64,000 bases of DNA from Iphione sp. A-MEVVRFRX5 (Eukaryota). The stretch lies in assembly GCA_976226885.1 (NCBI GenBank), contig OZ320313.1:14756001-14820000 (forward strand), in the 5' to 3' direction. The notes under the pieces are model-generated. The model searched no databases, was not told the DNA's origin, and saw only the letters and a program-made list of their open reading frames with translations. Of this stretch, positions 42,417 to 46,775 are shown piece after piece (position 1 is the first letter of the stretch; every line of letters starts with the position of its first letter). The position numbers were made by a program, and so were the translations under genes.

Positions 42417-45400
42417 GTCTGGGGAAGCGGATGCCGTTCGTGCTTGGAGCGGAGGAGTCCCAACTGTCGGCGGCGTACCCGGCTACAGCGGAGGCAGCCC
42501 GGGGGACCGTGGGAGATGGTGGCTGTTGATGTGCTGGGCCCTTTCCCCGAGACAGCCCGTGGTGCCAAGTATGTACTAGTAGCCTCAGACCACTTCACTA
42601 AATGGTCCGAGGCTTTCCCTCTGAGTACTTTGACAACGGAGGACACCGCCGACGTTCTGGTGAGGGAGTTGGTGTGTCGGTTTGGGCCCCCCCGGGTGCT
42701 ACATAGTGACCAAGGAAGAAATTTCGAAGCCAGGCTGGTCGCGGAGGTGTTACGCCTATGTGGAGTGGAGAAGACTCGGACCACCCCCTACCATCCTCAA
42801 GCCGACGGCCAGGTAGAGAGGTTTAATCGAACTCTCCAGCATATGCTCGCTACCTCGGCGGAAGATAACCAGTCTGATTGGGATCTACGACTACCTTTCG
42901 TAACGGCAGCCTATCGTGCTACGCCTCATCGAACGACTGGGTACTCGCCAAATTTCCTGATGCTTCACAGGGAAACCACCCTCCCCCTTCAGTTGGCCTA
43001 CGGAGGTCCCCCCGCGGAGGAAAGTGAGGAAGAGGGAGATGTGTACTCCTACGCAGCTGACCTGAGGGAGCGAGTTAGGGCGGCGCACGACCTGACCTAT
43101 CATCGCATGAACGAGGGAATTGCCCGCCAGACAGACTGGTATAACAAAAAAGTCAGGCACACCGACTACCAACCAGGGGACACGGTTTATCTGTTTCACC
43201 CACTAAAGAAGAAAGGACTGTCGCCGAAGCTGCAGAGGTTCTGGCAAGGGCCGTGGGTCGTGAGGGAGGCCCTATCCTCCGCCGTTTATCGAATACAGAA
43301 AGGGCGACACGAGAAGGTGGTCCATGCAGACTTGCTGAAGCCAGGAAAGGTGTCTACGGCCTCCGCGGTGAGGGATCCCCCGGCGACAGTGACCGTTACG
43401 CTGGCGAGTTTGAGGCGGGAACCCTCAGCCAATCAAAGCTCGGCGGAGGGAAGCAACCCACACCTCCGCAGGCAGCGAAGTATAAAGTCGCCCACACCGT
43501 TCGAAGGACTTCATAACTCCTCTCGACCCGCCAAGATGACTAGGAAGAAGGACCAAGTGTATAAATGTGATCAATGCACCTATACATGCGATCGCAAGGA
43601 TAATCTTCGAAGGCATACCCGATTGCACGCCGAGGAAGGTTATGCGTGGCCGTGTCCGTCGACTCGGTGTAAGGAGAAGGTCTTCTCACGCTGGGAGGAT
43701 CTAAAAAGACACCTGGAGACGAGGCAGCACGAGGAAGAGGACGGAGTAAAGGCCCTCCTTAAGAAGTCAAAGGAGGGCTACTACAAGTTCTTCAGAGTGG
43801 GGGGTTCGAGCACCCTCAGAGGACGGCCCAGCGAGCCACCAACGAAGAAAGCGGAGGGCGAGGCGGCGGAGGGGAAGACCGGTCGGGGAAAGAAGAAGAA
43901 GAGCCCAGCCATGGCGGCACAGGAAGCGAGGGTCGAGGCAGTCGAGGAGGAGAGAGAGGACGGAGGCTCGGGGGAGGAGAGCGAGGGGAGTTCCGGGGGT
44001 CGGCCTAAGTCGGTGGCAGTGGCGGCGGCGGCCAAACCTGCTGATAGCGAGACGAGCGAGGAGGGCACCGCGGTAACCGAGGCAAGTGACAGCGAGTGGG
44101 AACCCGAGGCCTCCACCTCGACGGCAGTGTCGCCTCCCCGTAAGAGGAAGGGGGTGCGGACCCGCGGAGGGACCCCTAAAAGAGCGGCGGCGAGGTCTCC
44201 CCCAAGGAAGAAGCAGACGGCGGCGGAGGTAAAGTCCCCAAGATCGCTTTGCAAGGAACTGAGGGGGACTATCTCCGACTTGCAAGTCAGACACCCCGGT
44301 ACCCCGGCCAGCTCCCCCGCCACGGTGGCGAGGGTGGTGGAGGCGGCGGAGGCCCTCGAACGGGCAATGCTGGGGCCGACAGCGACGACAACGGAGGCAG
44401 CAGCGAAGGGCAGCCCGGCAGCGAAGAGGAGACTGGGAGCAACTGAAGGGGGGCTGGCCTCCAAGCGGGGGCGAGGTCGAGGGCGCGCTCTCTCCCCCCT
44501 GGTCGGCAAGAAGGGGGGGCAGTTGCCCTCCGTTCCCTCGCCCCTGTCCATCGAGCAGAGGACACCGCCGGTCCTGCCCGATCGGGCAGCCACCCCGCGG
44601 TTACAAACACCGGAAACGAGGAGCCAGCGGGCCGGGCGCCTATCGAATTTGTCGACACCAAGCTTGCCCCCGACGCCAGCAAGCCTCAGCGATATTATCA
44701 AGTGGCTCGAGGAGGAGGGTCCCCGAGCCTCCCCCCAGGACGTGGCAACCGTGGCCGCTACACTGAGGAACTTGTTTGGAGATACCTTTCAAGTCGTCCC
44801 CACTGAAGCTCCGGTGAGTGCTACCGGGGGGAGGAAAGAGAGCTCCTCCGAGGAAGAGCTAGCTGACCAGTTGCCAGTATCGGGGGAGGAGGAAGAGGAG
44901 GTACCCACGAAGAGGGCCCAGGCGTCGACGGAATTACAGTACGTGGAGGTCGGGGGCGTGGTGGAGGTCCATGAGGCCATCACCCCAGCAGGCGCGGAGG
45001 AAGGCTCCCGGGACTCCCCACCGGTTCAGCAGCCACCGACGAAGCTACCGCAGCGGGACCCGAGAAGCATGGCACGAGAGGTCCTAGCGTGGCAAGGAAG
45101 GAGGGCTGCCGAAGGTGAAACGACCAAGAGCCAGGCGGGGGAGCTCCAGCCTCCTCCGCCGAACCAGGGGGACCAGCCGTCGCCAGCCACTGAGACGGTA
45201 ACGGCTACAAAAGCGTTGATAGCCACGATGAGCGTGTCGCCGCTACCCGAGGACAGCCCCCGCGGCCATGGAGGCCACTCGGCTGGCTCCCCGACTTCCA
45301 CGCTGGGGAGGGTCGAGCCGGTCCCTCCGCCGTCGACGTCGCCTGTGAGGCCCGGGCAGGGGAACCGCGGAGAACCTCCCTCACGACCGGGGGAGGGCGA

Positions 45401-46775: not shown

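Follow-up and report, generated by a model that had tools for sequence, protein, structure and literature searches.

A zinc-finger extension of a Ty3/gypsy integrase in Iphione is a candidate activator of the element's own LTR and of a predicted internal promoter

What is the function of a protein of more than a thousand residues that is joined in frame to the integrase of a retrotransposon? LTR retrotransposons are generally assumed to rely on transcription factors of the host, and self-made activators mark complex retroviruses. The question is raised by a 64,000-nucleotide stretch of DNA from Iphione sp. A-MEVVRFRX5 (contig OZ320313.1, positions 14,756,001 to 14,820,000; the whole stretch is termed the window here), in which the integrase frame of a Ty3/gypsy element runs on into two zinc fingers and a long 3' extension. 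From sequence analysis, the explanation we hold to be probable is that the extension is the element's own transcription factor, which would activate both its LTR and a likely promoter inside the element.

The extension forms the 3' part of a young retrotransposon of 8,828 nt (38262-47089). This has the features of the Ty3/gypsy LTR type: TG...CA LTRs, a primer binding site (PBS), a 4-bp target duplication (GTAT), gag followed by protease, RT, RNase H and integrase, and an integrase end that Pfam places in the GPY/F type. The LTRs are 278 nt each and differ by one mismatch. The 5' LTR (38262..38539, + strand) holds ten GCGGAG words, nine of them upstream of a TATA box at 38401, as well as an initiator-like TCAGTT at 38430 and AATAAA at 38472; the 3' LTR (46812..47089, +) has a G-rich tract just before it. 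The PBS (38541..38558, +) is presumably of the tRNA-Leu type. The gag gene (38524..39783, +) is Retrotrans_gag/PNMA-like with a CCHC knuckle, and pol (39627..43345, +), encoding protease, RT, RNase H and integrase, lies in the -1 frame relative to it. The likely gag ATG is inside the LTR end, and the gag frame crosses the PBS as GGSGG (window 38524-38560); the peptide of this region also opens the gag frames of many related families.

In the 1.18 Gb genome, the 40 matches scored for the junction of integrase and fingers were all 95-100% identical, and the places listed by searches with the terminal domain number at least about 120 for the family of the window element (family A) and at least about 105 for its sister, family B. 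The nearest database integrases are 32-46% identical to that of the window element and carry automatic names only. A stop at 42414-42416, in the integrase zinc-binding domain, is private to the window copy, being absent in 29 of 29 siblings; the full Pol fusion therefore cannot be made from this copy. Despite this stop, the finger ORF from the ATG at 43536 is whole.

The window also contains a Penelope-like retroelement (24175-29469). Its terminal direct repeats are identical over 300 nt, and it has ORFs of 486 aa and 985 aa, the latter with RT-like motifs (by eye) and a GIY-YIG end. Minisatellite arrays lie at 21234-21622 (63-nt units), 53769-54274 (62-nt) and 60738-61113 (45-nt).

From 42417 to 46775 the frame is open over 1452 aa, from the integrase core to the end of the extension, and Pfam recognizes in it rve, Integrase_p58_C and two zf-C2H2 stretches. 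The zinc-finger ORF (43536..46775, +; 1079 aa) starts at the first ATG after an internal TATA and is also the C-terminal part of Pol. It comprises C2H2 finger 1 (43566..43628, +), C2H2 finger 2 (43653..43730, +), basic clusters, eight Pro/Gly/Glu-rich repeats (45310..46389, +; PPSRPGEG repeats with units mostly of 138 nt, whose number differs among copies) and a terminal alpha+beta domain (46431..46757, +); the last 34 residues of the extension include 12 D/E and no K/R. A previous sequence-only reading had described this architecture correctly, as it had the in-frame fusion of fingers to integrase. It had proposed looking in siblings for a stop between integrase and 43536, and as a family trait there is none in the 30 loci checked; 12 of 20 full-length family-A siblings have a single protease-to-tail ORF of 2336-2428 aa, and private stops occur further up the frame in three siblings (L004, L012 and L028). 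The same reading held that the extension is not Env, and this too stands. The highest 19-residue hydropathy of the extension is 0.94, so that it has no membrane segment, and with no env match in Pfam either, an Env or errantivirus-type ORF3 can be rejected.

The 1079-aa extension is, on the evidence of codon comparisons, under purifying selection. Between subfamilies, dN/dS is 0.05-0.14 in RT-IN, 0.02-0.12 in the fingers, 0.02-0.15 in the terminal domain (0.35 in family G), 0.27-0.47 in the middle region and 0.2-0.7 in the linker between integrase and fingers; one pair was too close, with too few changes, to be of use, and the family-C extension is saturated. The extension is thus conserved across copies, as the earlier reading required of a functional protein.

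The DNA word that the fingers would read can be predicted from their helices, which are RKDNLRR (finger 1) and RWEDLKR (finger 2) in family A, and RKDNLKR and RKDDLRR in family B. C2H2 fingers bind DNA antiparallel, so that a finger 1 specific for GAG and a finger 2 specific for GCG would together recognize GCG-GAG. At residues -1, 3 and 6 the window helices agree with those listed for these triplets, RSDNLAR for GAG and RSDDLQR for GCG, in a published primer table (PMC3607563); PMC1920264 offers less on this point. GCGGAG is the commonest hexamer in the LTRs, with 10 in 278 nt in family A and 9 in 288 nt in family B, against only 17 in the rest of the window, 55 kb in all; in both families one site lies between the TATA box and the initiator of the LTR. 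It also ranks first among coding-region hexamers (of 1532 in A and of 1455 in B), and the pol ORF contains 55 copies in A against 14.3+-3.3, and 57 in B against 18.2+-3.7, in 1000 synonymous shuffles, none of which reached the observed number. The proposal that the fingers read the element's own GCGGAG therefore holds as a prediction, supported by the published helix code and the LTR word counts. AlphaFold2 models the pair as two fingers with moderate confidence (pLDDT 70). A profile search with the pair returned generic C2H2 proteins only, and a metagenome locus matching the profile was rejected as a bacterial chance match.

The linker between integrase and fingers (43346..43535, +), which is open in frame, contains a promoter-like block that the sequence-only reading missed. 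In the window copy GGCGGGAA at 43414 and AGCCAATC at 43427 are followed by GCGGAGG at 43443 (+) and 43463 (-), TATAAAG at 43481 and a predicted start near 43511-43513. The linkers of A and B share GGCGGGAA, AGCCAATC, GGCGGAGGGAAGC, inverted ACCTCCGC and TATAAA; the spacing of CCAAT, both sites, TATA and ATG is nearly identical in the two, and the first ATG, itself in frame, follows TATAAA at 55-58 nt. We use E2F-like, CCAAT box and initiator as conventional names for such motifs. At fourfold sites the linker is 0.71 identical between A and B (17 sites), as opposed to 0.29-0.42 in seven other regions, synonymous sites elsewhere being saturated between these sister families. This points to a constraint on the DNA itself. 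Such a block before the finger ATG would, from its sequence, allow the finger protein to be made without integrase.

CCAAT and TATA are also found upstream of the fingers in families C and M, but beyond A, B, C, I and M, five families of the 13, no internal TATA was found. A splice donor followed by an acceptor occurs in seven of 15 linkers, the two being 169-196 nt apart in six and 434 nt apart in one, and in four of these seven the first ATG past the acceptor is the in-frame ATG before finger 1. The 169-196-nt spacing would mark a putative linker intron in families D, G, H, I and K. Except in the I and K copies, finger 1 is preceded, at a distance of 5-38 codons, by an in-frame ATG. The word G(A/G)GCGATAA is conserved in the linkers of L166, L167, L174-L176, L178 and L179, and sits about 25-40 nt past the putative splice donor where a donor was found.

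Relatives of the element were sought by the PBS joined to other LTR ends, giving 219, 152 and 638 matches. Sixty loci were clustered, and 20 were fetched to span the clusters, chosen without knowledge of their 3' ends. The finger pair is present in 19 of the 20 and degenerate in L173. At least 17 of 100 places listed by the PBS search lie 4-7 kb upstream of a finger match (by eye, among the best 150 of 2769 finger candidates). The fetched loci, together with A, B and the later L182, make up 13 families in our own grouping; an RT tree built from families of the present genome only leaves D, G, H, I and K unresolved.

In finger 2, R-1/D3/R6 is retained across the 13 families (D51 and R54 are invariant in the alignment), although single copies deviate, and the finger 1 helix varies among families. 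The words found in U3 and linker vary as well: they end in GAG in A, B, M and L, GGG or GAG in C, GGG in F and J, GCA in D and H, GCA or GCT in G, and GCT with some GAT in I and K, with none clear in E. When the GCG-G-NN profile of each U3 was compared with that of its own linker in 12 families, the cosine was 0.66 versus 0.32 after permutation (p 5e-5; second copies left out, kinship ignored). The corresponding control with pol gave p 0.06, and p 0.68 without A and B. The own linker ranked first in five of the 12 families and in the top two in nine. The thirteenth family, fetched later by its PBS alone, has the helices RKANLIR/RRDDFRR, and GCGGAG is the top word in both its U3 (3) and its linker (15).

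The published finger code is nevertheless exact in only three of the 13 families, A, B and M. Family C shows a mixture of GGG and GAG, in D and H the word has GCA, against GAA by the code, and L shows GAG; finger 1 of family E is degenerate, and the U3 of this family has no excess of GCGG. This imperfect fit outside A, B and M, along with a GCG-G core in nearly all families, would be compatible with GC-rich words that are simply host sites of the Sp/KLF/EGR type, the fingers doing other work such as RNA or protein binding. GGGGCGGAG resembles a host Sp/KLF box. We regard this account as very improbable, as the last two bases of the word follow finger 1 by family and finger 2 holds to its three contact positions throughout.

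The pairing of finger and word may also be mobile. In family C, L161 and L162 have near-identical pol (dS 0.13) and a saturated extension; a promoter-plus-finger cassette appears, from these sequences, to have been swapped by recombination within the linker, and is in that sense swappable. Outside this genome, the ENA protein P0108, of 2317 aa and 44% identical in its integrase region, carries the same in-frame finger pair (E 3e-13), the one instance among the best 120 of 717 Pol relatives. In another ENA gypsy Pol, P0123, RNase H and integrase are separated by an inserted PHD finger.

The terminal domain is present in most recovered families, with six invariant residues among 16 sequences. 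AlphaFold2 predicts a helix-strand-strand-helix-strand-strand fold (pLDDT 84) for this domain, whose length of about 110 aa the earlier reading had given. The acidic end, which had been likened to the activation domain of VP16, is instead predicted to be the last hairpin of this fold, with strands at 94-105 and 108-120 (pLDDT ~92-94), and is strongly acidic in A and B only; elsewhere it has 4-8 D/E with 1-6 K/R. An acidic activation tail is thus rejected. The wider proposal of a DNA-binding domain plus an activation domain survives in its first part, the fingers being predicted to bind GCGGAG, whereas for the second no domain was identified.

Homologues of the terminal domain were sought widely. 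There were none at E <= 0.01 among proteins of length 798-2541, and a profile run against 1.84 billion proteins found no relative, three short matches being rejected as unrelated repetitive proteins. None of the 16 sequences matched Pfam, the best E against PDB sequences was 0.11, the Atlas gave no usable match and Foldseek none at E <= 0.001. The best fold match (Z 7.2, rmsd 3.3, 96 aligned) was to phage tail terminators, and matches were confined to middling alpha+beta (ACT-like) folds. On the strength of the model, this would be a new folded domain.

In 12 of 15 elements no stop interrupts the finger frame of the linker, over 68-546 codons, while the other frames have 2-20 stops each; the three linkers with finger-frame stops are those of frameshifted copies. 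This indicates that the Pol-fused form is selected too, and a separate finger transcript alone does not explain the open frame. The open frame could serve to deliver the factor together with the cDNA, or could spare the RNA the decay that a long untranslated tail might bring. It could also mean that the fused protein tethers integrase to its own cDNA or steers it to targets, or that a particle-delivered form primes the new copy, and the independent occurrence of the same in-frame pair in P0108 speaks for such a function. We nonetheless rate it as improbable. The 3' target 4-mer of family-A copies is ATAT in 17 of 21, GTAT in three and ATAC in one, and the immediate 300-nt flanks of the 21 copies contain three GCGGAG in 12,600 nt; the bias towards GCGGAG targets raised by the earlier reading did not materialize, nor does this sample show the enrichment at GCGGAG that a chromovirus-like integrase targeting domain would bring. 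The linker dN/dS and the swappable family-C cassette also argue against it, and it leaves the promoter block unexplained. Furthermore, the residues directly after integrase resemble other Pol/Gag junctions (e.g. VHAV, VAAV), which suggests release of the extension by the element protease.

At six of the 21 family-A copies the 5' target copy is ATAG and the 3' copy ATAT or ATAC (L031, L037, L038, L040, L044 and L047); ATAG 5' junctions are also seen in L084-L086 and L094. Since a purine tract ending in ...AG precedes the LTR, a cDNA 5' overhang may be kept during repair.

The density of GCGGAG within A and B raises a further possibility, that the protein is a VANC-like, sequence-specific anti-silencing factor that coats its own element to counter methylation or heterochromatin. 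This would be compatible with activation of the element's own promoters. In inserted copies CpG decays about 2-5 times faster than C/G at other sites, which makes methylation by the host likely, and the enrichment of the coding regions through synonymous codons, described above, provides family-specific repeated targets within the elements, akin to the repeats differing between related elements described in PMC5735166. As the main function we think it unlikely. The enrichment along the body is confined to A and B and absent in the other ten families scored, so a motif coat as a trait of the whole clade is rejected. Nor does this indirect measure show protection of motif CpGs in A or B, as they decay no slower than other CpGs: 0.014 vs 0.007 in young A copies, 0.060 vs 0.051 in older A copies and 0.014 vs 0.016 in B.

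The same sites might instead serve negative autoregulation or copy-number control, with the protein repressing transcription or blocking host GC-box factors. From the sequence evidence the target is fixed but the sign of the effect is not, and in the LTRs of A and B the site that follows TATA and precedes the initiator would suit a repressor. There is little likelihood of this, in our view: copies number about 100 or more in A and likewise in B, many of them nearly identical, and sites upstream of TATA in both promoters would fit activation better.

Activation by the element's own protein is favoured by the helix code match, the rank of GCGGAG in A and B LTRs and in the thirteenth family, the conserved CCAAT, sites, TATA and ATG, the donor-acceptor pairs of the linkers, the match of U3 to its own linker, the low dN/dS of fingers and terminal domain, and the junction-like residues past integrase. 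It is weakened by the few exact code fits, the few internal TATAs, a permutation test blind to kinship, selection on the Pol-fused form and the Sp/KLF-like box. Host factors acting at the CCAAT/TATA block would produce a low level of a short mRNA, from about 43512 to the 3' LTR. The 1079-aa protein made from it would bind the two sites in the internal promoter, giving positive feedback, and then the nine-site U3 array, driving full-length RNA. The disordered middle would supply activation, and the folded terminal domain may, as a guess, oligomerize, so that a reader of 6-7 bp favours arrays. The finger frame would also be made as the end of Pol and probably be cut from integrase by the element protease. 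We lean, with some reserve, to the further view that each family runs a private, swappable circuit, in which an internal-promoter C2H2 pair co-evolves through finger 1 with the LTR word; families would avoid cross-activation by joint changes of helix and word, and pol in A and B would have been recoded as a landing strip.

Such an arrangement has parallels in known systems. In foamy virus, Tas is first made through basal activity of an internal promoter and then binds, in turn, this promoter and the LTR (PMC13220597). The window element is similar in its predicted second promoter near the 3' end, its putative DNA-binding protein and its predicted positive loop on promoter and LTR. It differs in being a Ty3/gypsy element without env, its promoter-like block following integrase inside an open Pol frame, and in its predicted binder, a C2H2 pair whose target would differ by family, and no homology to Tas was seen; lacking an env gene, it is not a member of the Spumaretrovirinae. 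VANDALs are plant DNA transposons. Their VANC protein removes methylation and targets short repeats that diverge between related elements (PMC5735166), so that, as in the Iphione families, protein and short repeated targets diverge together; here, in contrast, a retroelement encodes C2H2 fingers, the sites centre on promoters, and the CpG decay gives no sign of protection. Captured domains are found in other retroelements or behind gypsy-type integrases. The chromodomain is one such extra domain, and captures of DNMT and AlkB by retroelements have reportedly occurred. Ginger1 carries OTU, Ulp1 and PHD domains behind a gypsy-type integrase (PMC2836005). As far as these sources extend, the Iphione element differs in that its finger pair is predicted to be sequence-specific and to match words of the element's LTR, and in the predicted promoter that precedes the pair. 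Literature searches covering titles and the starts of abstracts, with most subscription journals and Repbase outside their reach, found no description of a gypsy element that combines C2H2 fingers matched to its own words with an internal promoter, and 10.64898/2026.08.24.746577 and PMC13547354 contributed nothing further.

If the reading of the extension as a self-activator is correct, a Tas-like switch would have arisen convergently outside the retroviruses, in a gypsy clade of at least 13 families and hundreds of copies. The genome would also carry an element-made factor able to bind host GC boxes. The families would then amount to a natural library of finger-site pairs, in which the co-evolution of protein and site is directly testable with small isolated domains.
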